The notes beneath the pieces were generated by a model, which did no database searches, was not told the origin of the DNA, and saw only the letters and a program-made list of their open reading frames with translations. Made by a program: the position numbers and the translations under genes. Below, piece by piece: positions 5,285-51,917 of a DNA stretch of 64,000 nucleotides. The DNA is taken from positions 32,001 to 96,000 of the forward strand of contig JBDHHQ010000027.1 in assembly GCA_039589315.1 (NCBI GenBank). The letters are read 5' to 3'. Source of the stretch: Gemmatimonadota bacterium (GTDB taxonomy: Bacteria; Gemmatimonadota; Gemmatimonadetes; Longimicrobiales; Gaopeijiaceae). Positions within the stretch are counted from its first letter, which is position 1. Each line of letters opens with the position of its first letter.

Positions 5285-5471
5285 CGCAGCCAGATACAAC
5301 CAGACGCAGCCACACGCAGAAGACCTGGCGGAACTTGAAAACCGGCGTCCGAAGGGACACGTGGGTCCGAGCCGAGCGGCCGATGTGGTGTGCGCGATGC
5401 GGCCGGTCCGCTGGCCCGCGAGACCACTGAGGATCGCCGCAGGCGACCGCAGGTGAATCCCACCCCCTCCG
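5285..5471 (+). repeat. att-like element copy 1: 10-bp repeats + tRNA-Ser(TGA) 3' half with 86-bp T-loop insert (5371-5456)
   Basis: CTTGAAA-ACCGG, variable arm, GTGGG-TCCGA-[insert]-AT-CCCAC-CCCCTCC-G. Confidence 0.85.
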
Positions 5472-5561
5472 TTTAGGGATCACGGCAACGCTGGTTGGCC
5501 AAAGCAACGTCGATGAGTCCGAACCCACGGCGCGATCTGCGGAGCAGATCGCGGAGTTGGT

Positions 5562-5637
5562 GAGCCGAGCGGCCGAAACGGTGGGCCGCGGGGCGGACCG
5601 AAGGCGGCGGTCCGCGAGACGAGCGAGGACGGCGTGA
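5562..5637 (+). mobile_element. Free-standing diverged relative of the T-loop insert (MITE/REP-like)
   Basis: Starts GAGCCGAGCGGCCGA, shares CCGCG..CCGCGAGAC..GAGGA and ends GTGA like the inserts, but lies outside a recognisable tRNA. Confidence 0.55.
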
Positions 5638-5689
5638 AGCTCCCCCGGCTCGCTTACGTCCCGCCGCCCAGGGTGCAGCAGGGGTGCAT

Positions 5690-5800
5690 CTCCCGGGCCG
5701 GATTCCGGCTCAGGTTGGTGGCGCCGGACCCGGCGGCGGCCATGACGTAGATCTCGCCGTTCCCGCGACGGAACGATTCGAACGCGATCCGGCTTCCAAC
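5690..5800 (-). pseudogene. PD40/TolB-repeat gene fragment
   Basis: SRIAFESFRRGNGEIYVMAAAGSGATNLS. Confidence 0.6.
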
Positions 5801-5934
5801 GGGGAGCACTCGGGATGCCCGCCCTGGGGCGTGAAGCAAGGTGGGCAGCCCCAGGGTCGCCAACCCGCAGAGCGAATGCGCCAGGACCGTGGCAAGCGTC
5901 CCGGACCGACTCCACGGTGTGGTCCGGGCCGGAC

Positions 5935-6531
5935 TCACTGGCTCATGACGCAAGCCGGAGCGACCGGCTCCCGGACCCACCGGACCGTGTCCTGGGGGAC
6001 CCATGCCCCGTCCTCCCACACCTTGGCCACGGTCACCAGCGTGTCTCCCCGGCTCAGATCGGTGAGATCGCGGGAGCGCCCGGCGGTGCCATCGGGAAGG
6101 GACGCCGTGAACTCGACCAGGCGCGTGTCTTCACCCGGGGCGGTGAGCGTCCCTTCGGCCACCACCCCGATCCCCGCGAAGACCGTGACCCGGACGCCTC
6201 CGTTCTTCGGATCCGGGTGGAACACGATGTGGCTGAGGGCCTCGCAACGTCCGTCGGCGTAGACCGAAAGGGCGTCCGACGTGACCACGTTGCGTGCCGG
6301 TCCCCAGCGTGAGATCCGCGCCCAGTGGAACGGTTCCTCCTCGGCGCCCGGGCCCCACTCCGGATTATCGCGCCGCCACACGCCGGAACCGTTGACCTCG
6401 TGCTTCAAGAGCGCCGCAACGGGGCTCGCCTGCTGATCTGCATGCTGCGCGCCCACAGGGGCGAGCACGGCCCCCACAAGTGCGGTACTCACCAGTCCCG
6501 CCTTCCACCATCCGCCTCGACTCATCTCCAC
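5935..6531 (-). CDS. Hypothetical secreted protein (copy A)
   Basis: Signal peptide ending PVGA-Q; close paralog at 7244..7839. Confidence 0.7.
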   Translation of the reverse strand: MEMSRGGWWKAGLVSTALVGAVLAPVGAQHADQQASPVAALLKHEVNGSGVWRRDNPEWGPGAEEEPFHWARISRWGPARNVVTSDALSVYADGRCEALSHIVFHPDPKNGGVRVTVFAGIGVVAEGTLTAPGEDTRLVEFTASLPDGTAGRSRDLTDLSRGDTLVTVAKVWEDGAWVPQDTVRWVREPVAPACVMSQ

Positions 6532-6619
6532 CCCACACGTGAAAGGAAAATTTCAGAGGTGAGAAACCATGGCAAGATCGGCCGCCGGAGGCAAGGCAGG
6601 GAGGGGGGCGGATTGCCGG

Positions 6620-6725
6620 ACTTGAACGTCGAAGGGTCCGGATACGGTGGTCTCCCCAGGCCGCGGTCTCGTACCATCACCGAACGCGCCGGTGCTGTAC
6701 CCGTTGAGCCGAAGCATCTCGGCCC
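6620..6725 (-). pseudogene. Short arylsulfatase fragment (second copy at about 7935-8035)
   Basis: AEMLRLNGYSTGAFG followed, across frameshifts, by W.ETAAW-ETTVSGPFD, which resembles an arylsulfatase segment. Confidence 0.55.
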
Positions 6726-6736
6726 AAGGGCCTACC

Positions 6737-7040
6737 CGTGATCGAGTTCCGCGCAATCCTGCCCCTTGCCAACGTTTTGCCAACGCCACCCGCGAACAGA
6801 CGCAGTCAGACGCAAGACGCCGACTCTGGAAGACGGCTTAATCGCCTTTCCCCGCAGCCAGATACAACCAGACGCAACCAGACGCAGAAAACCTGTGGGA
6901 ACTTGAAAACCGGCGGGCTAACGCCCACGTGGGTTCGAGCCGAGCGGCCGAGATGGTGGTCCGCGATGCGGCCGGTCCGCTGGCCCGCGAGACCACTGAG
7001 GATCGCCGCAGGCGACCGCAGGTGAATCCCACCCCCTCCG
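6737..7040 (+). repeat. att-like element copy 2 (complete), T-loop insert 6939-7025
   Basis: TTGCCAACGTTTTGCCAACG, CAGACGCA repeats, CTTGAAA at 6902-6908, tRNA-Ser 3' half. Confidence 0.88.
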
Positions 7041-7243
7041 TTAGAATGGACTGCGCAGTTAAGGCGGCTGGCCTGCCACGGGGCGAACCTCGCCGCCGCC
7101 TCCCCGCGCCTCCCGACGCCGACTGCCGGTCCTGGGCGTGAACCAAGGTGGGCAGCCCCAAGGTCCCCAACCCGCAGAGCGAATGGACCAGGACCGTGGC
7201 AAGCGTCCCGGACCCCACTCTACGGTGTCGGTCCGGGCCGGAC

Positions 7244-7839
7244 TCAATGGCTCATGACGCAAGCCGGAGCGACCGGCTCCCGGACCCAACGGACCGTGTC
7301 CTGGGGGACCCATGCCCCGTGCTCCCACACCTTGGCCACGTCACCAGCGTGTCCCCCTGACTCACATGGGTGAGATCGCGGGAGCGCCGAGTCGTGCCGT
7401 CGGGAAGGGACGCTGTGAACTCGACGAGGCGCGTGTCGTCACCCGGGGCGGTGAGCGTCCCTTCGGCCACGACCCCGATTCCCGCGAACACCGTAACCCG
7501 GACACCTCCGTTCTTCGGATCCAGGTGGAACACGATGTGGCTGAGGGCCTGGCAACGTCCGTCGGCGTAGACCGAAAGGGCGTCCGAGGTAATCACTTTG
7601 CGTGCCGGTCCCCAGCGTGAGATCCGCACCCAATGGGACGGCTCGTCCTCCGCGCCGGGGGTCCACTCCGGGTTATCGCGCCGCCACACGCCGGAACCGC
7701 TGACTTCGTGCTCGAGAAGCGCCGCAACAGGGCTCGCCTGTTGGTCCGCATGCTGCGCGCCCACAGGGGCGAGCGCGGCCCCCACGAGTGCGGCACTCAC
7801 CAGTCCCGCCTTCCACCATCCGCCTCGCCTCATCTCCAC
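7244..7839 (-). pseudogene. Hypothetical secreted protein (copy B), 1-nt deletion near 7340
   Basis: Aligns with 5935..6531; GGCCACGTCACC versus GGCCACGGTCACC in copy A shifts the C-terminus. Confidence 0.7.
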
Positions 7840-8046
7840 CCCGTGTGTGAAAGGAAAATTTCAGACGTGTAAAACCATGGGGAGATCGGGCGCCGGAGGC
7901 AAGGCCGGGACGGGGGCAGATTGCCGGACCTGGACGTTGAAGGGCCCGGATACGCTGGTCTTCCCAGGCCGCGGTCTCGTACCAACCTACCGAACGCGCC
8001 GGTGCTGTACCCGTTGAGCCGAAGCATCTCGGCCCAAGGGCCTACT

Positions 8047-8360
8047 CGTGACCGAGTTCGGCGCCATCCTGTCCTTTGCCAACGTTTCGCCAACGCCACC
8101 CGAGAACAGACGCAACCAGACGCAACCAGACGCAAAGCCCTAGCCGCGACCAGCGCCGAAGACCCCCTGCACCGCAGCCAGATCGAACCACACGCAACCA
8201 GACGCAGAAGACCTGACGGACCTTGAAAGCCGGCGGGCTAACGCTCACGTGGGTTCGAGCCGAGCGGCCGATGTGGTGGTCCGCGATGCGGCCGGTCCGC
8301 TGGCCCGCGAGACCACTGAGGATCGCCGCAGGCGACCGCAGGTGAATCCCACCCCCTCCG
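8047..8360 (+). repeat. att-like element copy 3 (complete), T-loop insert 8259-8345
   Basis: Same architecture; CTTGAAA at 8222-8228. Confidence 0.88.
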
Positions 8361-8419
8361 TTGTGTGGTAAAACCACTTACGCATCTACGGCCACACCCT
8401 CCTCTCGCTCGGTCGCAGC

Positions 8420-9238
8420 GGGTGTTACCCGTTCTGTTACCGGCGAGTCGTCGCTCTCGTCGCCCAGCCCAAAACGGGCAGCCATCCGGTCCAATACTCG
8501 CCACATCCGAGTAGTCCGAGTGGAAGCGGGCGTACTTCATCGTCATCGTGATGTGCTTGTGCCCCAGCTGCTGCTGGAGCAGGTGAAGGGGCAGCCCGGC
8601 CCTCGGGAGCGCCACTGCGGCGGTGTGCCGGGGGTCGTGGATCCAGGAATCGTGGAGCCCCACCAGCCCGCAAGCTCTCTTGTGTTCGGCCTGGACCACG
8701 CGCCGAGGGGTGGTGAAGACGGGTTCCGTTCCGGACGACCCGGTGCCGTCGACATGAGCCTTGACCGCCGCTGCACCCCAGGGCGGCACGAAGACTGACC
8801 GCACGCCCGACTGGGTCTTGGAGCTTCTGACCGAGACGCGATTCTCCGTGGACCCGAACCGATGGTCGCACATCCGGAGTGCCTCGCCTTCCCCAATCCG
8901 CATCCCAGTTCCCACGAGGAGTTGCATGATCGGCCGGAACAGTCGTCGCAGTGCCGCCATGTACGCGGCGAGCTCGTCCGGCTCCAGGTACCGGATCCGG
9001 TCCTTCGACCCGAACCGCTTGATGCGCGGTCGCTCGTCGATCCAGCTCTGTCCGAGGGCGAACGTCGCGAGTACCGATACCGCTCCGAGGTCGTTGTTCA
9101 CCGTCTCCTTCGCGGCACCGGACGCGAGTCGGGCTGCCTTGAACTCCTGGATCCTGTCTGTGGTCAGGACATCGGCGACGGCCGCGTCATCGCCTCGCCC
9201 GGGCGGCCTTCCACTCCGCTCAGCCTGTGCCAGCCGAA
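8420..9238 (-). pseudogene. Tyrosine recombinase/integrase, 5'-truncated and probably frameshifted at the C-terminus
   Basis: TGMRIGE, SKT, IHDPRHT and LGH...TMKY catalytic-type motifs. No plausible native start. It points toward att copy 3. Confidence 0.85.
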
Positions 9239-9301
9239 GAAGCCGCACCACGTCGCGATGTACGTGAGATCGGAGACCCAGAGCCGGTTGGGGCAGACGG
9301 C
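9239..9301 (-). mobile_element. IS3-family transposase remnant
   Basis: Minus strand reads AVCPNRLWVSDLTYIATWCGF, the IS3 OrfB PN..W.SD.TY motif. Confidence 0.7.
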
Positions 9302-9358
9302 CAGCCGAGGCATCGGTGATCGATCGACCGTGGGGCCGCGTGCAGGTGTTGGACTTCG

Positions 9359-10366
9359 CTACTGCTGAGCCGTCGGCGACCTCTTCAACGTGTCCGACGG
9401 CCGCTCATCGAAGACCTCTCTGTAGAGGCGAGAGAAATCGCCGAAGTGCCAGAAGCCCCAGGCCACCGCCTCCGCCGTGACCGTCGTGGATCCGTATCTA
9501 GCGGCGCGCAACGCCTGACGGACCCGATGCAGCTTGAGGCGGGTCAGGTAGGCCATAGGCGTCATGCCGAGGATCTCACGGAAGGCGTATTGTAGCGTTC
9601 GCTCGCTGACGTGCGCGGCTCTACACAGGTCGGTCACGTACAGACGCTCTCCCAAGTGCGCGATCGCGTGGGCTTCTGCAGCCTTGATGACCTTGCTGTA
9701 CCCTCGCCGGGTCCGGTCTCTGCGTGTGAGGTCGAGGAAAGAGCCCGCGCTGAGGGTCTCCAGGAGCATTTCCAGAATCTGGGCGTGCGCCGTTTCCCGT
9801 GATCGTTCGCTGCCGTTGAACACGGCCGGCCGGCGTCGCGCCATGTCGGTGATCTGCTTGCCGAGCTCGTAGTAGGGACGAGCACCCAACTCACTGGGGA
9901 GTCGCATCTCGATCTTGCTCGGAAACGTGAGCTCATCGCTGCGCTGCCGCACTCGCAGGTGCTCGGCCAAATCACTCGTCGAGATCAGGAAGGTGACGCT
10001 GCTGTATCCCGGCTCGACCACCAGTTCCCCCTCCGCGCCGGGCGGCACTGCCAGCACGACGTCGGGGCGCATCGTCAACCCCTCGATGCTGCCCTTGGCT
10101 CTGGCACCGATGGCAAGGAACGCCATCAAGTCATCCTGCACCTTGGTGCGGGTGCGGAGGCGACGGTTGGTCGAGTGGAAGACCACCACGCCGCCCGTCA
10201 ACCGGACGACCACGCGCAGGGCCTGAAAAGGCTTGTCCTCGAGGTGGACTACGTCTTGGTCAAGGACTTCGATGCCCTCACGAGCGGCCGTCGGGTCCCT
10301 GATGTCAGCGACGGTCACCGCGGGCGGTGACTCGGGCTGGAGCGCTTCGGCACGGCTTTCGAGCAA
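9359..10366 (-). CDS. AraC-family regulator (EutR-like)
   Basis: LCRAAHVSERTLQYAF and WGFWHFGDFSRLYREVFDERPSDTL HTH motifs. Confidence 0.9.
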   Translation of the reverse strand: MLESRAEALQPESPPAVTVADIRDPTAAREGIEVLDQDVVHLEDKPFQALRVVVRLTGGVVVFHSTNRRLRTRTKVQDDLMAFLAIGARAKGSIEGLTMRPDVVLAVPPGAEGELVVEPGYSSVTFLISTSDLAEHLRVRQRSDELTFPSKIEMRLPSELGARPYYELGKQITDMARRRPAVFNGSERSRETAHAQILEMLLETLSAGSFLDLTRRDRTRRGYSKVIKAAEAHAIAHLGERLYVTDLCRAAHVSERTLQYAFREILGMTPMAYLTRLKLHRVRQALRAARYGSTTVTAEAVAWGFWHFGDFSRLYREVFDERPSDTLKRSPTAQQ

Positions 10367-10538
10367 GCGTCACATCCTGCGGAATTCCGATAGAGGAGGC
10401 CGAAAATCCACACTAACCTTTGGGACACGCACTGGAAACGGTCCACTTCGACGCCACCTGGGTCGCCTGATGATCGTGGGTCATCTATGGCTCGATGCGC
10501 TGGGCAGTTCCGCGACATGACGCCGTCAGGAGGATCCT

Positions 10539-11111
10539 ATGACCGGCCGTGTACCTGCTGCACTGTTCTGTTCAACCCTCCTTTTCACGACACCCATCCA
10601 AGCGCAGCTGCGGGGTGGCAGCACCTCGTTTGGGCTGTCCGGCGGAGCCTCCTCAAGCCAGCTAAGCGGGGGCAGCATCAACACGGACTTCCGATGGGGG
10701 GTTATGGCGGGCGCCTACGCGAGCTTCCGACCCAGCCGCAACACCGTGACGGCGCTCGAGGCGAATTGGGTCCAGAAGGGCGGCGGCGATACGCGACTCG
10801 ACTACATCGAAGTCCCCTTCACCGTCGGAGCCGCCGGTCCGCTGGGTGGCAGTGAATGGGCGGGCCGCCTCTACACCGGCATCGGCATCGGCTTCAAGGT
10901 GTCGTGTAGCTCGGACGCGACCCTACTCGACTGCGACAACGCGAATAGCACCGAGTGGGCCTGGCCCTTCGGCCTCATGGTCAGCCGGTTCGGCAGCTCC
11001 GGTCGCCCGGTTGGCTTCGACCTCCGCTACTCCGTGGGACTGTCTGACGTTTCCGCGGCGTTCGCTCAGAACCGCGCCTGGCAGATGCGAGTCTTCTTAG
11101 GCGTCGGATGA
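10539..11111 (+). CDS. Small outer-membrane beta-barrel protein
   Basis: Signal peptide; QKGG, LDYIEVP and DLRYSVGL strand pattern. Confidence 0.75.
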   Translation: MTGRVPAALFCSTLLFTTPIQAQLRGGSTSFGLSGGASSSQLSGGSINTDFRWGVMAGAYASFRPSRNTVTALEANWVQKGGGDTRLDYIEVPFTVGAAGPLGGSEWAGRLYTGIGIGFKVSCSSDATLLDCDNANSTEWAWPFGLMVSRFGSSGRPVGFDLRYSVGLSDVSAAFAQNRAWQMRVFLGVG

Positions 11112-12361
11112 CGATGTCGATGGAGCCATTCGTGGGGCTGTGTCCGGCGGAGCGGTCCCGACCGACTGGCGAGGCGACTCGCGTCGTAGGGTCTCTGATC
11201 CTCGCGTTCGCCCTGTCAGGGTCGGAGGCGCGAGCTCAGGACACGGAGCGGCGACCGGACGAAGCGGCTCGGCAGGAGCCGACCGTGGAAGACGTACTCG
11301 GCGGAATCGACGTGTATGGTCGCTTCCTGGCACACCTGGCCGCCTACAACGAACAGGCGGAGATGCAAGGCAACGGGTCGCGGTTGGGTGCCAGCGTGTC
11401 GATCGGTGACGATATCCACTTCATCGCGGGCATCGAGCTTGGAGTCAGCTTGATTCAGGCGACCCAGTTCAACGCGGGTGCCGCGACGAGCGGAAGCGCC
11501 TTCAGCCTCAGGGAGGAATCCGAAGAGACCTTCGGGACCCGGCTGGGTTTCCTGGGCACAGACTTCGGCAGTGCTGGAACGTTGACGCTGGGCAAGCAGC
11601 GAGCGGTCCACTACGACATCGCACGGTACACGACCGACCAGTTCAACGTCTTCGGCGGTCAAGGCAGCCAAACGTATACCGCCGGAACCGACGGCGGGAC
11701 TTTGGGCACGGGTCGCGTCGATTCCGCCCTGCAGTACCGGGTTCAGCTCGACCGCATTCGACTCGGAGGACAGCTGCAGTTTCGTACCGCTTCAGGTGAC
11801 AACTTCCTGGATGGCTTTGGTCTCGCCGCTACGGTTGACGTCACGGAGGGTCTTTCACTCGGCGGCGCCTACACACGAGCGATCATCGAGGAAGCGCTCA
11901 TCGAAGAGTCTCCCGGGCTGGACGGGGATGCCGAGTTCGGCATCCTGGGCGCCCGGTACGACTCGGATTCGTTCGAAGCCGGCGTCGTGGTTTCGACGCA
12001 ATCGAACGGCGACGTGGCCCGCCTTCCTGATGACGACGAGGACCCCGAAAGTTTTCTGCCGGTCTTCTTCGGAGCCAGTGGCTTCGAGGTCTTCGGGAAG
12101 GTGAAGCCCGGACAGTTCGCACTGCTCGGCGGCTTCGTCTACAACGAGCCAAGAGACCCGCTGGACCCGGTGCTGTCCCAGGACTTCGTTACGCGATACG
12201 CCATCCTGGGCGGTGAGTACTGGTTCCGCCCCAACACGGCCGTCTACGCCGAATGGCGTCTCGATGACAGCGTGAACGTCGATGACACCGAAGGCTTCGA
12301 CGTCCTCACCGTGGGGTTTCTTTACGGCTTCAGCTTTCGCGGCACAACGAAGGTCTACTGA
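11108..12361 (+). CDS. Porin
   Basis: SRLG, TRLGFLG and GTLTLGKQ gram-negative porin pattern. Confidence 0.8.
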   Translation: MTMSMEPFVGLCPAERSRPTGEATRVVGSLILAFALSGSEARAQDTERRPDEAARQEPTVEDVLGGIDVYGRFLAHLAAYNEQAEMQGNGSRLGASVSIGDDIHFIAGIELGVSLIQATQFNAGAATSGSAFSLREESEETFGTRLGFLGTDFGSAGTLTLGKQRAVHYDIARYTTDQFNVFGGQGSQTYTAGTDGGTLGTGRVDSALQYRVQLDRIRLGGQLQFRTASGDNFLDGFGLAATVDVTEGLSLGGAYTRAIIEEALIEESPGLDGDAEFGILGARYDSDSFEAGVVVSTQSNGDVARLPDDDEDPESFLPVFFGASGFEVFGKVKPGQFALLGGFVYNEPRDPLDPVLSQDFVTRYAILGGEYWFRPNTAVYAEWRLDDSVNVDDTEGFDVLTVGFLYGFSFRGTTKVY

Positions 12362-12403
12362 CACTAGGCAGCGTCCGCCTTTGCGGGAGATCTGCCTGGA
12401 GAG

Positions 12404-15261: not shown

Positions 15262-15521
15262 TCGCCCGGGGAGAGGAGACGCTAATCGGTGCCGTAGCGC
15301 GGCAGGAGGGTCAAACGATCCTCTCCGGCGCCGAAGCGGGAAGAGGTTGGAGCATGGTCATCTCAGACGATCACATGGCTTTGTCCCTGACCATGACGGA
15401 GGACGGAACGGGGTTCGTTGTTTTTGGAGCCTGCATTCCGACCGACCAAACGTCGCCGTCGGGGCTGTCATCCCGAAAGGGTTCATGGCCTGAAGGCGAT
15501 AGCACGACTCTTGACCTATGA
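15258..15521 (+). CDS. Small hypothetical protein, possibly truncated
   Basis: Coupled to the upstream gene; GRGWSMVIS..GFVVFGAC looks protein-like. Confidence 0.35.
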   Translation: MIARGEETLIGAVARQEGQTILSGAEAGRGWSMVISDDHMALSLTMTEDGTGFVVFGACIPTDQTSPSGLSSRKGSWPEGDSTTLDL

Positions 15522-41548: not shown

Positions 41549-41638
41549 CGTCCCGACCTTTGCTTTTCGGCGGTCCGATCGCCGTCACGCATCGCCGATC
41601 TCAGCGCCCATTCCACCGACGAGGGCTGCTTTCACACA

Positions 41639-41661
41639 TAATGCCTATAATGTTGGCATTA
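41639..41661. promoter_or_regulatory. Inverted repeat overlapping TATAAT between divergent padR copies
   Basis: TAATGCC-TATAATGTT-GGCATTA. Confidence 0.5.
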
Positions 41662-41699
41662 GGGCCTGCGCTGTCAACTGACCGCCGGCCGTTGGAGTC

Positions 41700-41935: not shown

Positions 41936-42031
41936 TTTCCGGTCGGTGGCCCGTCAGGGCGTCGCCGAGAGAGTGAAGACCGCCAACGCGTGGTCCACTC
42001 ATCTGCCGATGCTCTTCGCGCTACCGCAGTA

Positions 42032-42685: not shown

Positions 42686-42864
42686 GTCGTTCCAACCGGC
42701 GGCGCGGCTGCCGCTACGGGTGCGACCCGCGTCAATCGACGTGGGCTGCCGGGAGCGTTTGTGGCGAAGGTCACATTCTAGGACGGTGCCGGGGATATTG
42801 CCAATAGAGGCTATAGTGGGCCCGACCCTGGCCGGGACCCGTGCTAACCGAACAAAGGCTGGCG

Positions 42865-43686
42865 ATGAGCTCACGACGACGGACCTTCGAAGCGGCGGCC
42901 CTCGCGCTCTTCTTCCTCGGCGTGGCGATCCTGACAGTCTTCGGCTTCGCGATGCGCGACTGGATGCCACCCGCGGCGTCGCGGCACGCGGCGGGCATGG
43001 ACGGGATGATCGAGTACCTGCTCTACACCACCGGAGCCATCTTCGTGATCGGGCATCTGGTCCTCATAGCCTTCATCTGGCGGTTCGGACGAGGACGGCG
43101 TGCGGACAACCCCGAAACGAAGCCCAGGACCGAGCGGCTCTGGTCGATCGCACCAGTCGTCATCATGGCCCTCGTCTCCGAGGTCGGCGTGTTGGTCATC
43201 GGGCTCCCCGTCTGGGACGAGATCTACGGTGACTTTCCTGAGGACGCGCTCGTCGTGGACGTGGCGGCACGACAGTTCGAATGGATCATCCGCTACGCGG
43301 GAAGTGACGGTGAGTTCGGCCGCACGGATCCCGAGCAGATCGACGGTGCGTCGAACCCGACGGGCCTCGACGCCGGCGACCCGCGGGCTGCGGACGACGT
43401 GGTCGTCCGGAACGTGCTGCGGCTCCCCGTGAACCGACCGATCTACCTGCGCCTGAGGTCGCACGACGTCCTGCACAGCTTCTCGGTGGCCGCCTTCCGC
43501 GTGAAGCAGGACATCGTGCCCGGCATCGTGGGCAGCACCCAGTTCGTGCCGACCCGAGTGGGCACCTTCGAGATCGGCTGCGCCGAGCTGTGTGGCCTGG
43601 CGCACTATCGCATGCGGGGCCGCGTGATCGTCATGTCCGAGGATGAATACGACCAGTGGCAGCTCGACCAGGGAGGAGCCGAATGA
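42865..43686 (+). CDS. coxB: Cytochrome c oxidase subunit II
   Basis: DVLHSF and CAELCGLAHYRM CuA motif. Confidence 0.93.
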   Translation: MSSRRRTFEAAALALFFLGVAILTVFGFAMRDWMPPAASRHAAGMDGMIEYLLYTTGAIFVIGHLVLIAFIWRFGRGRRADNPETKPRTERLWSIAPVVIMALVSEVGVLVIGLPVWDEIYGDFPEDALVVDVAARQFEWIIRYAGSDGEFGRTDPEQIDGASNPTGLDAGDPRAADDVVVRNVLRLPVNRPIYLRLRSHDVLHSFSVAAFRVKQDIVPGIVGSTQFVPTRVGTFEIGCAELCGLAHYRMRGRVIVMSEDEYDQWQLDQGGAE

Positions 43687-45482
43687 CCGGTCACGCACCC
43701 CTCCCGTTCTGGCGGCGCTACATCTTCTCCACGGACCACAAGATCATCGGGTTGCAGTACATCCTGACCGCGGCCTTCATGGCCATCGTGGCCGTGGGGC
43801 TGTCGGTTCTGATCCGCCTGCAGATGGCCTGGCCACAGACGCTCTGGCCGGCCCTGGAGCGCATTCTGCCGCGGGCGTACGAAGGCGGGGTGCTCCTGCC
43901 CGAGTTCTACATCAGCATGGTCACGATGCACGGGACCATCATGGTGTTCTTCGTGATCTCCCTCGCTCTCGTGAGCGGCATCGGCAACTTCATCATCCCC
44001 CTGCACGTCGGGGCGCGGGACATGGCGTACCCGTTCCTCAACATGCTGTCGTACTGGACCATCGTACCGGCCTGTCTGATCATGCTCGCCTCCTTCTTCG
44101 TAGAGGGGGGCGCCGCCGCCGGGGGTTGGACCTCGTATCCGCCACTGTCCGCGCTGCCAGGGGCTTTACCGGGATCGGGCCTGGGGCAGACGCTCTGGCT
44201 CCTGGGGATGGCCCTCTTCATCGCCTCCTTCACGATGGGAAGCCTCAACTTCCTCACGACCATCCTGAACCTGAGAACCCGGGGCATGTCGCTCATGCGG
44301 ATGCCGCTCACCACCTGGACGATGTTCGTCTCGTCGGTGCTCGGTATTCTGGCCTTCCCGCCGCTCACCGCGGCCGCGATCATGCTGCTCTTCGACCGAC
44401 ACGGAGGCACGAGCTTCTTCCTCCCAGGCGGTCTGGTCGTGGGAGGTCAGGTGCTCCCGTTCGACGGTGGAACTCCACTCCTGTTCCAGCATCTGTTCTG
44501 GTTCCTGGGCCACCCCGAGGTCTACGTGCTGGTCCTCCCGGCCCTCGGCATCGCCTTCGATGTGGTGGCCACCTTTGGACGCCGGCCGGTGTTCGGTTAC
44601 CGGACCACGGTGTGGTCGCTACTCGTCGTCGCGGTCCTGAGCATGATCGTGTGGGGGCACCACATGTTCACGAGCGGTATGAACCCGTACGTCGGCGAGT
44701 ATTTCTCGATAGTGACCGTGGCGATCACCCTGCCTTTCGCGGTTATCGGTCTGAACCTGATCGCCAGCCTGTGGCGTGCCGAGCTGCGCCTGACCACGGC
44801 CATGCTCTTCGCGATCGGCATCATCTCGGCCGTGGGCACCGGTGGCCTGGGAGGGCTGTACCTCGGAACGGCAGCCTCGGACATCTACTTCCACGACTCG
44901 GTGTTCGTCGTTGGGCACTTCCACTTCATGATCGGCGTGGTGACGTCGTTCGGGATCTTCGCCGCGCTCTATTTCTGGTTCCCCAAGATGTTCGGGCGGC
45001 ACATGAGTGAGACCCTGGGCAAGGTGCACTTCTGGCTCACCATCGGGCCCGTCTTCGCCGCCTTCATAGCAATGCACTACCTCGGCTTGGGGGGTGCGTT
45101 GCGCCGGGTGTACGATCCCACCGTGTACGAGTACATCCGGCCCCTGCAGCAGATGAACGTCTGGATCACCTACGCCCTGATCGTCGCCGTCGTGGCGCAG
45201 CTCGTCTTCTTCGTGAATCTCGTCTACGGGATGCTGTGGGGCCGACGTGCCGAAGAGAATCCGTGGCAGGGTGCCACGCTGGAGTGGACCACGCCCTCAC
45301 CGGCCCCACACCTGAACTGGGCCGAGCCCCCGACCGTGTTCCGGGGCCCGTACCAGTATCGCGTGAATGGCACGGCCGAAGGGTATACGCCGCAGCACGT
45401 TCCCGACCGAATGGACCAATCGGCCGCTGAGGCGCTCCGGGGCCCGCCGGCGGAACCGACGCTCGCAGGAGGTCCGGAATGA
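43683..45482 (+). CDS. coxA: Heme-copper oxidase subunit I (A1-type signature, atypical K channel)
   Basis: MHG, ARDMA, GHPEVY, WGHH, HFH, RR. Confidence 0.95.
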   Translation: MTGHAPLPFWRRYIFSTDHKIIGLQYILTAAFMAIVAVGLSVLIRLQMAWPQTLWPALERILPRAYEGGVLLPEFYISMVTMHGTIMVFFVISLALVSGIGNFIIPLHVGARDMAYPFLNMLSYWTIVPACLIMLASFFVEGGAAAGGWTSYPPLSALPGALPGSGLGQTLWLLGMALFIASFTMGSLNFLTTILNLRTRGMSLMRMPLTTWTMFVSSVLGILAFPPLTAAAIMLLFDRHGGTSFFLPGGLVVGGQVLPFDGGTPLLFQHLFWFLGHPEVYVLVLPALGIAFDVVATFGRRPVFGYRTTVWSLLVVAVLSMIVWGHHMFTSGMNPYVGEYFSIVTVAITLPFAVIGLNLIASLWRAELRLTTAMLFAIGIISAVGTGGLGGLYLGTAASDIYFHDSVFVVGHFHFMIGVVTSFGIFAALYFWFPKMFGRHMSETLGKVHFWLTIGPVFAAFIAMHYLGLGGALRRVYDPTVYEYIRPLQQMNVWITYALIVAVVAQLVFFVNLVYGMLWGRRAEENPWQGATLEWTTPSPAPHLNWAEPPTVFRGPYQYRVNGTAEGYTPQHVPDRMDQSAAEALRGPPAEPTLAGGPE

Positions 45483-46093
45483 GCCGCCTGACGTTGGCGG
45501 GGACGATCCCCCTCGACGTCCCGCAGGGCGCAGGACGCGGCGCCCCACCCCCGCCGTCTGGCCGCGGCCTCTATCCCATGTTCCTCATGGCCGTGCTGGC
45601 CACGGTCACCATGCTCTTCGCGGCGTTCACCGCGGCCCTCCTGATCCGGCGCTCCGGATCGGACTGGATCGCCATCGAGCTGCCGGCCATCGCATGGGTG
45701 AACGGCGGTGTGATCGTCGTCTCCTCGGCCCTTCTGGAGCTGGCCAGGAGGGCGCTCCGCTCAGGTGCTGCATCCGTCGCCCCGCTATGGCTGGGGCTCG
45801 CGGCCGCCCTCGGACTGCTGTTCCTCGCCGGACAGATAGTGGCCTGGCGCGCGTTGATGGCCGAGGGCGTCTTTCTCCCTTCCAGTCCTCACGCTGCCTT
45901 CTTCTACATGCTGTCGGCGGTCCACGGCGCCCACGTCCTCGGGGGCCTCGGTGCGCTGGGGTGGACACTCCGGAGCGCGCTGAGAGGAGCATACACCGCA
46001 ACCATGCACCGGGGGTTGAGCCATGCGGCGGTCTACTGGCACTTCGTGGGAGCGCTCTGGATCTACCTTCTCATCCTCATGCGGATCGCCTAG
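45479..46093 (+). CDS. Cytochrome c oxidase subunit III-like (first)
   Basis: HGAHVLGG and YWHFV. Confidence 0.85.
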   Translation: MSRLTLAGTIPLDVPQGAGRGAPPPPSGRGLYPMFLMAVLATVTMLFAAFTAALLIRRSGSDWIAIELPAIAWVNGGVIVVSSALLELARRALRSGAASVAPLWLGLAAALGLLFLAGQIVAWRALMAEGVFLPSSPHAAFFYMLSAVHGAHVLGGLGALGWTLRSALRGAYTATMHRGLSHAAVYWHFVGALWIYLLILMRIA

Positions 46094-46096
46094 GAG

Positions 46097-46714
46097 ATGC
46101 CAATGAGCGAGACAGGCACGATGCCGGCGCCTGTATACTGGGCGGGAGGCGACAGTCCGTTCGCGATGTCGTGGCAGAAGCTGATGATGTGGGTCTTTCT
46201 CGTGACGGACGCATTGCTGTTCGCGGGCTTCCTCGCGGCCTACGCCTTCATCCGGCTCGCCAGTGGGTCGTGGCCCGAGCAGGGCGAGGTCTTCAACATG
46301 ACGCTGATCGGCGTCATGACGTTCACGCTCATCACGTCCAGCGCGACCATGGCCTCCGCCGTCGGCGCGGCGCACCGAAAAGACCTGAAGACGGCTACGC
46401 GGTTCGTTCTACTCACGGCTCTGGGCGGCGCGATCTTCCTGGGGATGCAGGCCACGGAGTGGACGCAGCTGATCCACGAAGGAGCGCGCCTGTCCGGGAA
46501 TCCGTGGGGGGCGACGGCCTTCTCGTCGTTCTTCTTCATGATCACGGGCTTCCACGGAACGCACGTGCTCATCGGCGTGATCATCCTCCTCATCACGGCG
46601 GCGCGATCGCGATCCGGCACGGCGACGGCCGACGGCGTCGAGTTGGCAGGCCTGTACTGGCACTTCGTGGACCTCGTCTGGGTGTTCATCTTCACGACCT
46701 TCTACCTGATCTGA
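46097..46714 (+). CDS. coxC: Cytochrome c oxidase subunit III (second)
   Basis: MWVFLVTD, TGFHGTHV, GLYWHFVDLVW. Confidence 0.9.
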   Translation: MPMSETGTMPAPVYWAGGDSPFAMSWQKLMMWVFLVTDALLFAGFLAAYAFIRLASGSWPEQGEVFNMTLIGVMTFTLITSSATMASAVGAAHRKDLKTATRFVLLTALGGAIFLGMQATEWTQLIHEGARLSGNPWGATAFSSFFFMITGFHGTHVLIGVIILLITAARSRSGTATADGVELAGLYWHFVDLVWVFIFTTFYLI

Positions 46715-46724
46715 CGGAGCCAAC

Positions 46725-47027
46725 ATGGAAGGCACCATTTCGTACAGGACCTACTGGCTGATCTGGGTCGTGCTGCTCGTGCTTACGCTCGTCATGATCG
46801 GGATCGAGGCCATGGCCCTGCCCACGGGAATCGCCATCCTCCTGCTATCTGGGGCCATGATGACGAAGGCTGCCCTGATCGGCGGGTGGTTCATGCACCT
46901 CAAGTACGAGACCCGCTTCATCGTAGCCTGTCTCGTGCTGGGGACGTTCCTCACGGCGGCCTTCCTCGTCTTCCTGCTCGTGCCGGACGGGATCGCCGCC
47001 AATCGCATGGCGGAGTATCCACAGTGA
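46725..47027 (+). CDS. Cytochrome c oxidase subunit IV family
   Basis: KAALIGGWFMHLKYE. Confidence 0.85.
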   Translation: MEGTISYRTYWLIWVVLLVLTLVMIGIEAMALPTGIAILLLSGAMMTKAALIGGWFMHLKYETRFIVACLVLGTFLTAAFLVFLLVPDGIAANRMAEYPQ

Positions 47028-47176
47028 CCGGAGCAGAAGGCACGCCGGACATGTTCGTGAACATGCTCCTGGCCACGGGAGTGCTCATCGGGGCCGTGGC
47101 GGCGCTCGTCATAGCCGGATTGGTCGTCTATCACAAGACCGCCCAGGACAGATGGGAGTCGCGCGACGCACCTTGA
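47024..47176 (+). CDS. Small single-TM protein in the cox operon
   Basis: GTG overlaps the subunit IV stop; one hydrophobic helix. Confidence 0.4.
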   Translation: MTGAEGTPDMFVNMLLATGVLIGAVAALVIAGLVVYHKTAQDRWESRDAP

Positions 47177-47237
47177 CCGCAAATCGGTCTCAGGAAGCGA
47201 TCGCCGCGATTGAGGTCCCCGGCGGCAGGGGGAACCC

Positions 47238-48203
47238 ATGAAGCACGCAGCATCCGATCGGGTTCTACACGGAGCCGCGGGTGGGGCTCTGGCCGGGATC
47301 GTCGTGATCGTCTGGTTCTTCGCCATGGACGTCGTGGCCGGCACACCGTTCGATACGCCTGCCCGCCTCTCCAGTGCGGTGCTGCGAGAAGGGTTCAGTA
47401 GGCCCTGGCCCCGGCTGATCGCGCTTTTCACCGTGCTGCACTTCGGGGTCTTCGTATCGCTCGGCGTGGCCACCACGTGGTCTCTCGACGCCGTGCAGTT
47501 GAAGCCCAACGTCATCGTGGGTGCCGTGTTCGGCGTCTTCGTGCTCAACGCGGTGCACTACGTGGGGCTTCTGGTGACGGGCACGAACCTGCTCACGGTG
47601 GTGCCTGTGCTGCAGGTCACAGTGGCGAACCTCCTCGGTGGCGTCCTGATGATGTTCTACCTGCAGAGGACCCTCGGGGACTCCCCGGAACCGGACCGGA
47701 GCGCCGTCGAGCGCCACCCCTTGCTCGTGCACGGGCTGGTGACCGGCGCCATAGGTGCGGTCGCCGTCGCCATGTGGTTTCTCGCCGTGGACCTCTTCGC
47801 GGGCTCACCGCTGCGGACGCCTGCAGTGCTCGGGTCGGCGCTACTCCTCGGCTCCGAAAGCGCCGCCGATGTCCAGCTCAATCCAAGCGTCATCGCGGCG
47901 TACTCGGTGCTTCACCTCGGCGTCTTTGCAGCCGTCGGCATCGCATTCAGCTGGCTAGGGGGCAGGGTCGAAAGCACGCCCGCGTTTGGGGCTCGCGCCG
48001 CAGGGGTACTCGTGCTCCTGGAGGTACTCTTTCTCGGGACTGCGGGCATGGCCAGTGACTGGGTCCTGCAGGAGCTCGGCTGGCTGACCGTTCTCGTGGC
48101 CAACGTCCTGGCGGTCGGGGCGATGGGGGCATGGATCTGGCGGACTCGACCTGGTGGCTGGGGCTCGGCTCGGTTTGACGGGCCTCCCGGATCTGGACGA
48201 TGA
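47238..48203 (+). CDS. Internally duplicated polytopic membrane protein
   Basis: Two homologous halves (WFFAMDVVAGTPFDTPARL / WFLAVDLFAGSPLRTPAVL). Confidence 0.8.
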   Translation: MKHAASDRVLHGAAGGALAGIVVIVWFFAMDVVAGTPFDTPARLSSAVLREGFSRPWPRLIALFTVLHFGVFVSLGVATTWSLDAVQLKPNVIVGAVFGVFVLNAVHYVGLLVTGTNLLTVVPVLQVTVANLLGGVLMMFYLQRTLGDSPEPDRSAVERHPLLVHGLVTGAIGAVAVAMWFLAVDLFAGSPLRTPAVLGSALLLGSESAADVQLNPSVIAAYSVLHLGVFAAVGIAFSWLGGRVESTPAFGARAAGVLVLLEVLFLGTAGMASDWVLQELGWLTVLVANVLAVGAMGAWIWRTRPGGWGSARFDGPPGSGR

Positions 48204-48228
48204 GCGAGGGAGACCGTCCGGCGTCTGA

Positions 48229-48350
48229 TCACGGCCTCGGCCCTTCCGAGGCTGATGCGACCCGCTCCACTTCCGTCATGACGGGGAGCGTGTTCTCGCC
48301 CCAGATCTTGCGAATCGTCTCCTCGTCGAAGCCGCGCTGCAGCACCGTCG
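48229..48350 (-). pseudogene. C-terminal fragment resembling an M19 membrane dipeptidase
   Basis: LQRGFDEETIRKIWGENTLPVM. Confidence 0.5.
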
Positions 48351-48433
48351 TCTCGCAATCTCGCGCCATGGTGTGGCTTGGGGAGGTCCTGGGAGCGACG
48401 CCCCGAAGGAGGTCACCTCGTGACCCGCAGTTC

Positions 48434-50053
48434 ATGCGAACACGGGCTCTGATCGCCGGAATGGTACTGTCGACGGGCACCCTTGCCGCCCAGGAACTGC
48501 GGCCCGGATTCGTGGATCCTGAACCCGTTCTTCGGGCGGCGGCCGAGGCGATCGGGACCGACCGGCTCAGGTGCGTTACCATTTCGGGGAGCGGGTACAC
48601 CGGAATGGTCGGCCAGCAGCGCCTGAACGGCTACGAGGTGGATTGGCCACGTGGCGAGCCTCTGGCCAATTACACCCGCACCATGGACTGGGAAGCCGAG
48701 ACCATGGTCGAGGAGTTCGACCGCGAGCCGGGGCGCAACCCAGCGTCGTGGAAGTACGGCCTCGGGTGGAGGGGAGGCACGCCGCTCCAGGCGAGCTCCC
48801 GCCAGCGCTTCGTGGTCAAAGGGCTCCACGGGTGGCACGTGGACGGGCCGGGCGGCGAAGCAGTGGCCGCTCGACCGGAGGACGTGGAGCGTTGGCAGCT
48901 GGACCTGTGGCTCAATCCGCACGGATTCTTGAAGGCTGCGATGAAGCCGGGCGCGAATCCTCGGGGCGTTTGGCGTTGGGAGCTTGGGGAGATGGGACGG
49001 GACGGTGCGACCACCGAGCCCGATAAGGTGACCGTCGTATCGATCACCGTGCTCGACAAGTACCGCGTGGACGCGACGATCAACTCCGAGCATCTGCTCC
49101 AGAGGATCCACACATGGGTACCGGACCCCGTGCTCGGCGACATGAACTACGAGCACGAGTTCACCAATGCGAGCTATGTGGACGTGGGAGACGGCGTGCG
49201 CTTTCCGACGGGGTGGCATCATCATGAGGGCTGGGACGACAACTTCCAGGCCCAGAGCATCAACGCCGGCCACAACGCCTTCGGTGGAACCTTCGCGGAT
49301 GTCCAGCCGAACCGGTGCGACAACCCGGCGACGGTCCCCAATCACGTGCGCCGGGCCAGCTTCCCCATCCGTGTGACGACAGAAGAGTTGGCCCCCGGCG
49401 TGTGGCTGCTTGGCGGAGCCTCGCACAACAGTGTGGCGGTCGAGTTCGCAGACTACGTCGCGGTCGTCGAGGCCCCGCTCGACGAGGCGCGCAACCTCGC
49501 GGTCATCGATGAGGTCGCGAGGCTCGTGCCGGACAAGCCGATTCGATTCCTGGTGAACACGCACCAGCATCACGACCACATCGGCGGGCTCCGGACGTAC
49601 ATGCACATCGGCGCCACGATCGTAACACACTGGAAGAACTACGACTTCTACGTCCGCGACGTGTTGAATTTCGCTCCGAGGACGCTCTCGCCCGACATGG
49701 TGTCCCTGTGGCCGCCCACAGAGCTGGCCGAGGGATACCAGTACGAGACGGTCCGGGAGAACCACTGGCTCAACGACGGATCTCGGACGATGCACATCTC
49801 GTACGTGCAGCCCCTCGCTCACGTCGAGGGAATGCTCGTGGCGTATCTGCCCGGCGAGAGGCTCTTGATCGAGGCTGACCTGTTCGATTGGATGGGACCG
49901 CGTAATACGTGGCCGGTCACCGCCACTGCGGCTGGCGAGAGCCTGTACAGGCACGTGCGACGGCTGGAGCTGGACGTCGAAACGATCGTGCCGATCCATG
50001 GGCAACCTGTCCCCTGGGCGGAGTTCGTCCGCTTGGTCGGATCAGGGGGCTAG
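48434..50053 (+). CDS. Secreted MBL-fold metallo-hydrolase
   Basis: Signal peptide; NTHQHHDHIGG, H, EAD, PIHG. Confidence 0.85.
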   Translation: MRTRALIAGMVLSTGTLAAQELRPGFVDPEPVLRAAAEAIGTDRLRCVTISGSGYTGMVGQQRLNGYEVDWPRGEPLANYTRTMDWEAETMVEEFDREPGRNPASWKYGLGWRGGTPLQASSRQRFVVKGLHGWHVDGPGGEAVAARPEDVERWQLDLWLNPHGFLKAAMKPGANPRGVWRWELGEMGRDGATTEPDKVTVVSITVLDKYRVDATINSEHLLQRIHTWVPDPVLGDMNYEHEFTNASYVDVGDGVRFPTGWHHHEGWDDNFQAQSINAGHNAFGGTFADVQPNRCDNPATVPNHVRRASFPIRVTTEELAPGVWLLGGASHNSVAVEFADYVAVVEAPLDEARNLAVIDEVARLVPDKPIRFLVNTHQHHDHIGGLRTYMHIGATIVTHWKNYDFYVRDVLNFAPRTLSPDMVSLWPPTELAEGYQYETVRENHWLNDGSRTMHISYVQPLAHVEGMLVAYLPGERLLIEADLFDWMGPRNTWPVTATAAGESLYRHVRRLELDVETIVPIHGQPVPWAEFVRLVGSGG

Positions 50054-50199
50054 ATGCCAACAGGGTAGAGGCTGGCGGCTGTGCGCAGCAGCTCAGCGTT
50101 CTCTCCACCCAGCTCCCTTTGCCAACACTCCGGGATCTGCCTCCGACGCGTGGACAAAGTGAACCAGTGGGTGATTCCGGGAGGAGAAATCAGGTGCGA

Positions 50200-50730
50200 G
50201 GCACCGTGATCGCGTTGGCCGGCCTCCTGTGGGCACCGCATCAGTCGCCCACGTTGAGCATCACGATCGTGGGAAACGCCGGAGTGCTTCTTTCGGACGG
50301 TGCTACATCGCTGCGCGTAGATCTTCCCTACGAGTCGGGTGCCTTTGGCTACCAGACGTATGATCCCTCCGACCTGAATCCCCCGGGGTATCAGGTGCGC
50401 CCGTGGGATCCGCTGTCGCTGGTCGTCGCCACAGGGGGACTGGTGTCCGTCGCGTTGGTCGCGTGCTGGATGCCTGCACGTCGGGCGATCGCTGTGGACC
50501 CGGCCGCGACGCTTCGGAGCGACTGAGCCACGAAGCGGTGGTGGGTGACACCGCACCGGAGCAGGGCGAGGAGCCCCAGGCCCGTTACCGGCAGATCACG
50601 CCAGGGTACGTCCGGAGCCCGTGCTCGCCGCGTCCCCGCGAGCGACTCAGCGCCACCCCTCTCGAGCTCTTCGGGGGTTTGGCCCTTGCCCTCGCCGTAA
50701 TCGGGATCTATGGCGTGACGTCGTATTCGG
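50200..50730 (+). pseudogene. Mosaic of MBL-fold N-terminal and ADOP permease fragments
   Basis: ITIVGNAGVLLSDG fused to YQVRPWDP..PARRAIAVDPAATLRSD; then FGGLALALAVIGIYGVTSY. Confidence 0.6.
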
Positions 50731-51018
50731 GTCCCTCCTCGCTTCCTGGCCCTGGGCCGTGCCACGGGGCTCCCCGGAGATGGGCGTCACTGGTCACGTC
50801 GAGTAGCAGAATGGGGTGGGGCACCCCTCGGCGAGCAAGGAGGGCCAAGATGCGAGCCTCGACACGAGATCACGATGCCTGACCAGGCGCAGATCTTCTT
50901 CGCTCTGTACCCGGTCCGGACATGGCCACCTTGGTCAGCCCGACGCCGTTGAGGGTGATCGAGACCGCACGATGGACCGAACCCAGTCATTCGGGGCCGA
51001 TGAAGCTCGACGACTCGC

Positions 51019-51555
51019 TCACAGGTTGTTCGTCTCGTATCCCCTTGCGTATCGCTCTACGTCTTGAAACAGCCTCTTGAGAATGCGCTTCCCTCTGCCC
51101 CAGGCGAACTTCTGGCCTTTGAACGTGACCGAGGCTTCGATGCGGTAGTCCGATTGTCGTCCGCTGACATGAGCCGACAACTCACCATTCCAAGCCAAGG
51201 CCGACGAGGGAACCGTGGCGACGATGAGGCAATCCTCGGCCTTGATTCGCTCGTCCAACTGAGTGATCGAGATCCCCTGCTCCGCAATGCCACACAGTAA
51301 TCCAAGAAGCACATAGCCATACCGGTGCGAGAGGGCCACGGCATCGCGCGTCTGCGACTGGAGACCCAGATCTTCGCCGAGCTTCGGTCCCACGGCCGCG
51401 GCCAGCCGGGTCGTCAACGGTGTGAACTCGAGAAACTCTTCGGCGCTTTCGGGGAGCTTGGCCTTGGCGAGGGCGTCGGTAACCATCTCGATGCCAAGGG
51501 GATGTCGGAGGAGATCGTGAATCGAATCGATTCCCGACACCTTTGGAGCACTCAT
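51019..51555 (-). CDS. Hypothetical protein
   Basis: ORF with GAGG before ATG (MSAPKV); no recognised family. Confidence 0.45.
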   Translation of the reverse strand: MSAPKVSGIDSIHDLLRHPLGIEMVTDALAKAKLPESAEEFLEFTPLTTRLAAAVGPKLGEDLGLQSQTRDAVALSHRYGYVLLGLLCGIAEQGISITQLDERIKAEDCLIVATVPSSALAWNGELSAHVSGRQSDYRIEASVTFKGQKFAWGRGKRILKRLFQDVERYARGYETNNL

Positions 51556-51891
51556 GAGGACACCTCGTTGGCAGGACGAGCGTTGCTGAAGAAGCCTCAC
51601 CCCCCAACGCCGGCGGGCTCCTTATCGCGCGTCAGGACCCGGGGCCTTCCTCGCCGAAGGGCTGGTCCGCTTCTGGTCCTGTAGCACATAGTAGACCCGG
51701 CGAACGTAGCACGAAATGTCGGCCGGATTAGCGAAGGAAACGCCATGCTCGAGCCAAATCGGCGGCGGCGGCCACGGTGTCGACTTCGCCGTGGGGTACT
51801 ACGGGATGGGAGCCAACCCGAGGGCGCCCCGTCCGGTCAGGTCAAGCTCGGGTTCACCTGGCTGTTTCCGCGGTGAGCGGTCACTCGACGA

Positions 51892-51917
51892 CCCCCGTCC
51901 CCGCAGCCAGATACAAC
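51892..51917 (+). repeat. att-like element copy 8 (short remnant)
   Basis: CCCCCGTCCCCGCAGCCAGATACAAC, matching copy 7 and the conserved block. Confidence 0.6.

Follow-up and report, generated by a model that had tools for sequence, protein, structure and literature searches.

The window analysed here is a 64,000-nucleotide stretch (C27:32001-96000) of a Gemmatimonadota genome, G000, which is a metagenome-type assembly of 6.67 Mb in 288 contigs with 95% completeness and 5.07% contamination. Along it lies a row of eight joints – each a recombination arm of about 140 nt with, where it is kept, a displaced 3′ half of tRNA-Ser(TGA) behind it – which an earlier note on this DNA had described as one element recurring on the + strand. 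All eight copies are indeed present on that strand, with self-BLAST identities of 76-96%. The modules between them span 1.0-15.9 kb, have genes in both orientations and at most 15 called genes in any one module, and are stacked in tandem as cargo units without functional recombination or transfer genes. We consider it probable that this row arose by serial integration of elements resembling phage-inducible chromosomal islands (PICIs), followed by loss of their tRNA-proximal ends, to give a long stack of remnants similar to cis-mobilizable elements (CIMEs).

Only the copies at 6737 and 8047 are complete and the other six are eroded, so that the earlier description of the last two copies as the partial ones is correct for 35793 and 51892 and falls short for the others. 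The copy at 5285 is without the distal arm, that at 16255 has an internal deletion, those at 21246 and 27565 are partial or decayed, and that at 35793 is an arm only. The piece at 51892 is 26 nt long and matches an arm on contig C1 exactly; because the longest exact match on the 283 arm-less contigs (6.33 Mb) is 15 nt, it is beyond chance.

A complete joint reads, in order, a direct-repeat pair of TTGCCAAC, two clusters of 10-nt CAGACGCAAC repeats, GGAA, the core CTTGAAA, and the tRNA-Ser(TGA) 3′ half. The spacer between the CAGACGCAAC clusters is variable in sequence and constant in length, and in an alignment of the arms the site pairs and 10-nt repeats are conserved and the spacers vary. 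Lambda-type attachment (att) sites are the model for reading arm and core, and by this analogy the TTGCCAAC pair would be putative integrase arm sites and the 10-nt repeats putative sites for excisionase (Xis) or a host factor. Identity to the tRNA begins at CTTGAAA in five copies (5334, 6902, 8222, 16319 and 27594), as the earlier note observed, with a decayed CTCCAAG at 21292. The bases just before the anticodon loop are CCGGT in the intact tRNA but GGAA or GGAC in the copies, so that the sequence common to both starts at the loop itself.

Table. Coordinates of joints, integrase remnants and cargo in the window (cargo labels by Pfam and NCBIfam)
Feature	Position	Strand
Joint 1: P arm 5285-5333, core CTTGAAA 5334-5340, 3′ half with 86-nt T-loop insert 5369-5455, tail 5456-5473	5285-5473	+
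tRNA-linked palindromic repeat, decayed, directly after joint 1	5474-5634	+
Single-gene module: 198-aa protein, signal-peptide-like N-terminus, no Pfam match	5935-6531	-
Joint 2, complete: TTGCCAAC pair 6766-6784, CAGACGCAAC 10-nt repeats, core 6902, 3′ half with 87-nt T-loop insert 6937-7024, tail	6737-7042	+
Second version of the gene for the 198-aa protein, 91.4% DNA identity, frameshifted near end	7252-7839	-
Joint 3, complete: site pair 8076-8094, core 8222, 3′ half with T-loop insert 8257-8344, tail	8047-8362	+
Family A tRNA-proximal (P′) arm, GGTAACA site pair at 8423-8441	8363-8441	-
Broken family A tyrosine integrase, about 120 N-terminal residues missing, C-terminus out of frame	8400-9194	-
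Cargo: AraC regulator, beta-barrel and porin-like proteins, sulfatase, MetA-pathway protein, HigBA	9359-16209	.
Joint 4: site pair, internally deleted arm, core 16319, 3′ half broken inside insert	16255-16360	+
Cargo: tetratricopeptide repeat (TPR) protein, 131-aa protein, beta-propeller (YncE-like) protein	16586-21167	.
Joint 5, decayed: proximal arm, altered core and half	21232-21330	+
Na/H antiporter-TrkA, enoyl-CoA hydratase-like protein, thiolase	21365-27270	-
Joint 6: proximal arm, core 27594, uninterrupted 3′ half truncated in acceptor stem	27565-27642	+
Cargo: ArsR regulator, 4Fe-4S protein, NrfD, molybdopterin oxidoreductase (TtrA-like, below curated cut-off)	28029-35414	+
Joint 7: arm only, without tRNA half; 96% identical to the C1 arm nearest the intact tRNA	35793-35949	+
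Cargo: ATPase-like protein, PadR and MacB/FtsX permease, extracytoplasmic function (ECF) sigma factor, cytochrome c oxidase genes, metallo-beta-lactamase-fold protein	36770-51540	.
Joint 8: arm fragment, 26 nt	51892-51917	+

Judged by their sequences, the displaced halves were working tRNA halves. Two of the four variable-arm pairs are changed on both sides, and 95.2% of 83 cells are paired, a value that none of 500 shuffles reached, in a test of 12 distinct rows (including L032, a record near-identical to G000 contigs, and the relative G022) whose shuffle ignores relatedness. Rejoined in silico to the 5′ half after removal of a T-loop insert, all 11 halves tested are called as tRNA-Ser by ARAGORN (ten TGA, one GGA). 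Different functional halves in one row are predicted by serial integration and not by simple duplication.

The insert is palindromic, 86-87 nt long, and present in the T-loop of three window copies and in part in a fourth. It belongs to a lineage-specific palindromic repeat with 18 matches in G000, which terminates in a duplicate of the 3′ end of the tRNA behind which it stands, be it Ser, Pro or another (contigs C68, C127, C42, C176, C159, C32 and C33). Relatives have the whole repeat (128-196 nt) behind intact tRNAs, often in tandem, and we infer from the shared sequence that the T-loop insert is the right half of this repeat, fused at the common GGGTTCG. The idea of a tRNA intron was discarded, since the insert is found only in displaced halves, the same palindrome forms the right half of the repeat behind intact tRNAs, and Rfam gave no relevant match. 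The repeat stands behind the tRNA at none of five integrase-bearing left ends, at four of six integrase-less ones, and at seven of the nine other tRNA-Ser genes tabulated; this last count marks the repeat as the background state. Its versions at the tRNA and at the displaced half are more alike within than between genomes in G220, G430 and for two G000 copies, and not clearly so in G321 (3/4). Repeats linked to tRNAs in Escherichia coli, and rhizobial repeats, are known; a literature search found no description matching the present tRNA-linked palindromic repeat, which may be described in subscription papers outside that search.

No intact tRNA and no relevant Rfam match is found in the window. 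An intact tRNA-Ser(TGA) had been predicted to lie to its left on the + strand, and this prediction failed, for there is none on C27 and the sole tRNA-Ser(TGA) 5′ half of G000 is at C1:164792. The upstream genes there, including one that we take to be purH, are those of relatives, i.e. the usual context of this locus in the family. Downstream of the intact tRNA come a sulfatase gene and then, 3 kb away, the first joint, and in 6 of 13 relatives tRNA-Ser is followed by a gene that in G000 sits on contig C34. The G000 tRNA gene (C1:164791-164868, L011:14792-14869) has a variable arm 8 nt shorter than that of L032, probably an assembly slip at a hairpin and otherwise a short-arm tRNA-Ser. An arm lies at most 16 kb downstream of intact tRNA-Ser(TGA) in five relatives (G022, G220, G321, G327 and G430). 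Behind that tRNA, G321 has a single integrase-less island of about 0.7 kb with one gene, G220 has one of 4.8 kb, and G022 has two integrase-less units of 1.3-1.7 kb.

The fifth relative, G327, has what is likely, from its genes and sites, the parent type of the window joints. At the left end of the element (contig C12) an intact tRNA-Ser(TGA) is followed, about 70 nt behind it, by a TTGCCAAC pair and then by a 398-aa tyrosine integrase (family B). A HTH_3 regulator, terS, a DUF3987 helicase-like gene, a HTH_17 gene and cargo come next, and the right end, 15.7 kb on, has the TGCCAAC pair, the arm and a displaced 3′ half, its site pair being the same as that of the left end. The domains present are PF00589, PF12728, PF01381, PF13148 and PF03592, and the att sites, at a distance inside the 10-20 kb range, enclose an integrase, an xis-type helix-turn-helix (HTH) gene, a regulator, a replication gene and terS, a PICI-like gene set. 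Relaxase or type IV secretion system families were absent from the 12 open reading frames of the element that were scanned. G327 therewith provides a matched set of an apparently intact integrase and both att sites, alongside many natural joints with the arm only.

Family B, and not family A, is likely the cognate enzyme of these arms, as their site pairs suggest. Surveys of 313 relatives found family B homologs in 21. At 16 of these loci a tRNA is present, every one having a site pair of its own where such a pair was seen; the TTGCCAAC pair occurs only at the two family B loci by tRNA-Ser(TGA), those of G327 and G371, whose integrases are 78% identical. A family B integrase was not found in G000, G001 (a genome of the same genus), G022, G343 or G430 beyond weak generic matches, all five being incomplete assemblies.

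The broken family A integrase of the window, which the earlier note had listed in one block with the sulfatase and HigBA, is not the cognate enzyme of these arms, and a reading of it as such was dropped: families A and B are about 30% identical over 97 residues and have different site pairs. It is 57-59% identical to a full integrase adjoining tRNA-Ser(TGA) in L031, is preceded by a short fragment resembling an insertion sequence (IS) transposase (9167-9358), and is the only family A member in G000. Protein-family scans found no other integrase in the modules, in keeping with the earlier claim that most have none of their own. Family A is found in 7 of the 313 relatives, six times by tRNA-Ser and once by tRNA-Gln, and its full members have the arm pair GGTAACA and are accompanied by an excisionase-like HTH gene and once also by a replication initiator; the family profile gave 74 matches at E<=1e-30 among 1.84 billion representatives. 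The far end of family A islands was not found within the 60-100 kb (G010), 80 kb (G373) and 40 kb (G361) examined. Family A integrases also lie 5′ of tRNA-Ser(TGA), at L051:5514-11214 (G220), L047:12398-19561 (G253) and L088 (G330), and the first two of these genomes have a displaced 5′ half 6-7 kb upstream, the family thus being used in both polarities.

In the account that we favour, an accretion array would have formed at tRNA-Ser(TGA), and the row would be its distal and older portion. The arriving elements, small and PICI-like, would carry an attP composed of P arm, CTTGAAA, a replacement 3′ tRNA half and P′ arm. Each newcomer would recombine in the anticodon loop and restore the tRNA with its own 3′ half – the anatomy is observed and the recombination is taken from the lambda-type model – pushing away the resident half and earlier elements, and leaving each joint with a P arm and a displaced half. 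The tRNA-proximal part (P′ arm, integrase and backbone) would then have been lost, fixing the distal cargo as CIME-like remnants; the loss is observed, and its place in the order is presumed. At least two integrase families would have used tRNA-Ser(TGA), the window remnant representing the second (family A), and later deletions, one inversion and collapse of the tRNA-linked repeat into T-loops would have eroded the joints. At present the modules probably cannot move on their own, but they could move in cis or rearrange by recombination between joints.

Support for decay comes from intermediates, namely an island in G430, the broken window integrase, a P′ arm on contig C142, and the several gene fragments that adjoin joints. 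The G430 island is integrase-less and 5.3 kb long, and one of its genes is homologous to a G327 backbone gene (E 5e-43). The arm on C142, without an integrase, is collinear over 71 nt with that of the window, and is one of the family A P′ sites kept at 2 of 14 tabulated G000 sites. Taken with the arm anatomy, the compensatory variable arms and the G327 parent, this supports what the earlier note proposed in outline: one family of att arms with displaced tRNA-Ser(TGA) 3′ halves, integrated serially by crossover in the anticodon loop. As a separate observation, the cargo of the G430 island is a class III/IV lanthipeptide-synthetase-like gene (L099:15677-18127), below cut-offs.

Several observations weigh against this account. 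None of the 14 G000 sites tabulated retains the cognate family B P′ pair, which would require loss of this end from every element. The joint 7 arm (35793) shares 96% identity with the one nearest the tRNA, a poor fit to a simple age gradient; module GC content is flat, at 0.64-0.69 compared with 0.675 for the genome. One arm copy on C27, at C27:6297, is inverted, and the co-orientation reported earlier thus holds for the eight window copies and not for the contig. Neither an intact tRNA on C27 nor an end-link of C27 to other contigs was found, so that contiguity of the row with the tRNA is itself presumed. Two pairs of joints (C1/C142 and C27/C93) share the same downstream DNA with different upstream arms and cargo. 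Finally, the two single-gene modules lie in a tandem pair of 1.24 kb (5816-7042 and 7124-8362, 89% identical) in which the arms are 80% and the inserts 98% identical, and 33 of the 51 differences between the two gene versions are at third codon positions, a pattern that an old duplication and the separate arrival of a unit already lacking an integrase would explain equally well.

Such units raise the question of a live cassette system, in which non-autonomous modules that had no need of an integrase gene would receive integrase and Xis in trans from a passing PICI-like element, and a circle with one P arm and a tRNA half, cut out from between two joints, would be re-inserted at the tRNA; the array would then be an analogue of the integron based on tRNA att sites. 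We regard this as unlikely. It would account for integrase-less units that are very short and yet have a clean arm and half (about 0.7 kb in G321, 1.3-1.7 kb in G022, and 1.0-1.3 kb for the two versions of one gene in the window), for the conservation of site pairs and 10-nt repeats while spacers vary, for the different arms and cargo joined to the same downstream DNA, and for the same layout, built on a different site motif, in two genomes that belong to another family. However, lambda-type integration requires both arms, and the cognate P′ arm is missing from all 14 G000 sites; the five genomes searched gave no cognate integrase, most window joints are eroded, and no identical module was seen at a different array position in the other genomes compared. 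A related proposal, itself doubtful, is that Gemmatimonadota have integron-like gene collecting without an integron: cassettes as short as a single gene and made up of P arm plus tRNA-Ser half would be re-stacked by the integrase of visiting satellites, with the tRNA-linked repeat replacing the P′ arm, so that a satellite becomes a fixed or helper-dependent cassette. Units moved in trans with the P arm only would, if true, be the interesting case, and whether integrase-less units at tRNA hotspots are dead remnants or cassettes moved in trans becomes a testable question.

The earlier comparison with an integron cassette array did not survive tests for IntI, for attC hairpins and for gene orientation. 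Integrons have the integrase IntI, attC sites, and a stationary integrase beside the first site. The array resembles them in stacking integrase-less gene units at one locus, and the small size of some units, together with an IntI-like fragment just downstream of a displaced tRNA-Ser half in G321 (contig C10, L128:661-1300; TIGR02249 118.6 bits over 142 residues, below the cut-off), might be taken to point to a true integron with unusual attC sites. We give that almost no credence. Neither family A nor family B is IntI (TIGR02249 scores of 40.7, 50.4 and 59.7 bits, the cut-off being 265), and the arm forms no hairpin in six folds (fold z +1.26 in the first, -0.49 to +1.44 in five more that covered both strands). 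Unlike integrons, the array has no IntI, no attC hairpin, no uniform gene orientation and no stationary integrase by the first site, and its modules reach 16 kb and include regulators.

A sequence-only arm model, 9 of whose 16 training sequences come from G000, found 13 arms in this genome, confined to contigs C1, C27, C93, C142 and C184 (5/288), with 150 of about 3100 first-look candidates scored. Ten of 150 family genomes have arms, 1-2 each (four of these arm-bearing genomes gave training sequences), as do three of 150 phylum genomes, with 1-3 each. In the 32 kb of C27 to the left of the window there is a tRNA half with another flank and without this arm (C27:29838). The genome-wide scatter expected of a dispersed element derived from tRNA-Ser, similar to a miniature inverted-repeat transposable element (MITE), which had been named as the outcome that would overturn the island interpretation, is not seen. 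One inverted copy and the involvement of several contigs speak for such an element, but it is very improbable, given the confinement to 5 of 288 contigs, the direct-repeat arm sites without a hairpin, the complete integrase-bearing parent at the tRNA in G327, and the arms near intact tRNA-Ser(TGA) in five relatives.

It is improbable, too, that the row is partly a product of assembly or binning, with merged strain alleles and old resident genes lying between decayed att remnants scattered by local rearrangement. The metagenome-type assembly, with its many contigs, contamination and branching at repeats, would allow it, as would the 8-nt gap in the tRNA variable arm relative to the near-identical L032, and the antiporter/beta-oxidation block of the window adjoins in G001, without att sites, the genes of the right end of C27. 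Yet the eight window copies are on one contig and differ from one another by 4-25%, and so are not collapsed or duplicated reads, and an independent assembly reproduces three joints in a row: record L027, near-identical to G000 contigs, joins C184 and C142 in one co-oriented run with three arms. Because the same downstream DNA is found with different arms, alternative alleles of a mixed population may exist, and the array count of 13 may sum over more than one strain.

Some further observations concern these contigs and the arm pattern elsewhere. A second genome bin, which belongs to another genus and has a tRNA-Ser(TGA) gene itself, includes several contigs (L027, L032, L034 and L055) that match G000 contigs at >99% identity, a sign of misbinning in one or other bin. 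The first 84 nt of C184 equal its last 84 nt, which could be an excised circle, a tandem copy or a mere assembly branch. A truncated arm without tRNA half (L021:15010, G010:C1:4295007) lies 6 kb downstream of tRNA-Thr(TGT), far from the tRNA-Ser genes of G010. In another family, G589 and G562 (L163-L168) have the same layout of arm and tRNA-Ser half with TTGGGAAG site pairs, two of the sites being 3.1 kb apart in G589. The arm pattern gave no matches in viral contigs; three in metagenome contigs were set aside as chance matches inside coding DNA.

The general layout of such arrays is already known, which limits the surprise. Published work on streptococcal accretion (PMC7563491, PMC5704250) describes CIMEs of 1.2-13 kb, tandem elements at one target gene with decayed, cargo-bearing members without a recombination module, as here, and places the most decayed members farthest from the target. 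The streptococcal parents are integrative and conjugative elements (ICEs) or integrative and mobilizable elements (IMEs), whereas the parent here is PICI-like (terS, helicase); Streptococcus salivarius composites have two or three elements, compared with eight joints on one contig here; and CIMEs keep attL and attR, whereas P arm and core are what most joints keep here. With a PICI-like parent in place of an ICE or IME, and with one arm at most joints, the present array differs from a classical CIME array. Islander (PMC4383910) likewise has a tRNA and displaced 3′ fragment at island ends, a tyrosine integrase and anticodon-loop crossover (anticodon-centred subsite A, in 2083 of 3919 islands); a minority of its islands have 5′ fragments instead, for which G220 and G253 offer parallels. 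It lists 125 tandems of at least two and only four of at least three, and needs an integrase in each member; the present array, with one broken family A gene, falls outside that definition, and its length is unusual beside those tandems. Island finders that require an integrase miss such arrays.

Prochlorococcus tycheposons (bioRxiv 10.1101/2020.12.28.424599) are also PICI-like integrase elements of 10-20 kb in which newcomers push older ones inward, and their islands have fragmented integrases, scattered partial tRNAs and mostly DNA without elements. They belong to another phylum with other integrases, and the long conserved arm at the joints is a feature of the present array. The additive flexible genomic islands of Alteromonas are tRNA-marked additive cassettes, and the passages describing them (PMC4898812) give neither arm anatomy nor a parent element, both of which are identified here. 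Searches on integrase-less tRNA cassettes and on Gemmatimonadota PICIs found nothing describing this locus, most subscription papers lying outside their reach.

The cargo labels of the earlier note agree with Pfam and NCBIfam matches, with the TtrA match below its cut-off, and the array shows how, in a little-studied phylum, genes of accessory metabolism gather at a single tRNA, namely sulfatases, a tetrathionate-reductase-like complex and an oxidase operon. For the 198-aa protein of the single-gene modules, the ESM Atlas gives a lead to DUF1579-like clusters (score 0.93), with recognition below threshold. The segment 19190-21209 recurs in G001 at 88%, 6 kb downstream of that genome's own tRNA-Ser att copy and with other neighbours; for the bulk of the remaining window cargo, comparison with three genomes gave no close match. 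Att copies had been said to mark switches in cargo; we do not claim this for the antiporter/beta-oxidation block, which is present in G001 at 86-91% identity, in permuted order and without att sites, next to the GTPase and GHMP-kinase genes that end C27 on the right, and which from this context may be old resident DNA.

Between window 21365-27372 and G001:C96:14225-20302 the antiporter and hydratase/thiolase genes are circularly permuted, with intergenic breakpoints. A single circular intermediate was considered for this block and left unexplained, the G001 antiporter having its own 11-nt flanking repeat and no att site. At the right end of the window (59400-64000) a DUF3604 gene and a gene for a nucleobase permease lie in DNA of lower GC content, 0.58-0.60, with hydantoinase genes beyond the window and no bounding att copy.

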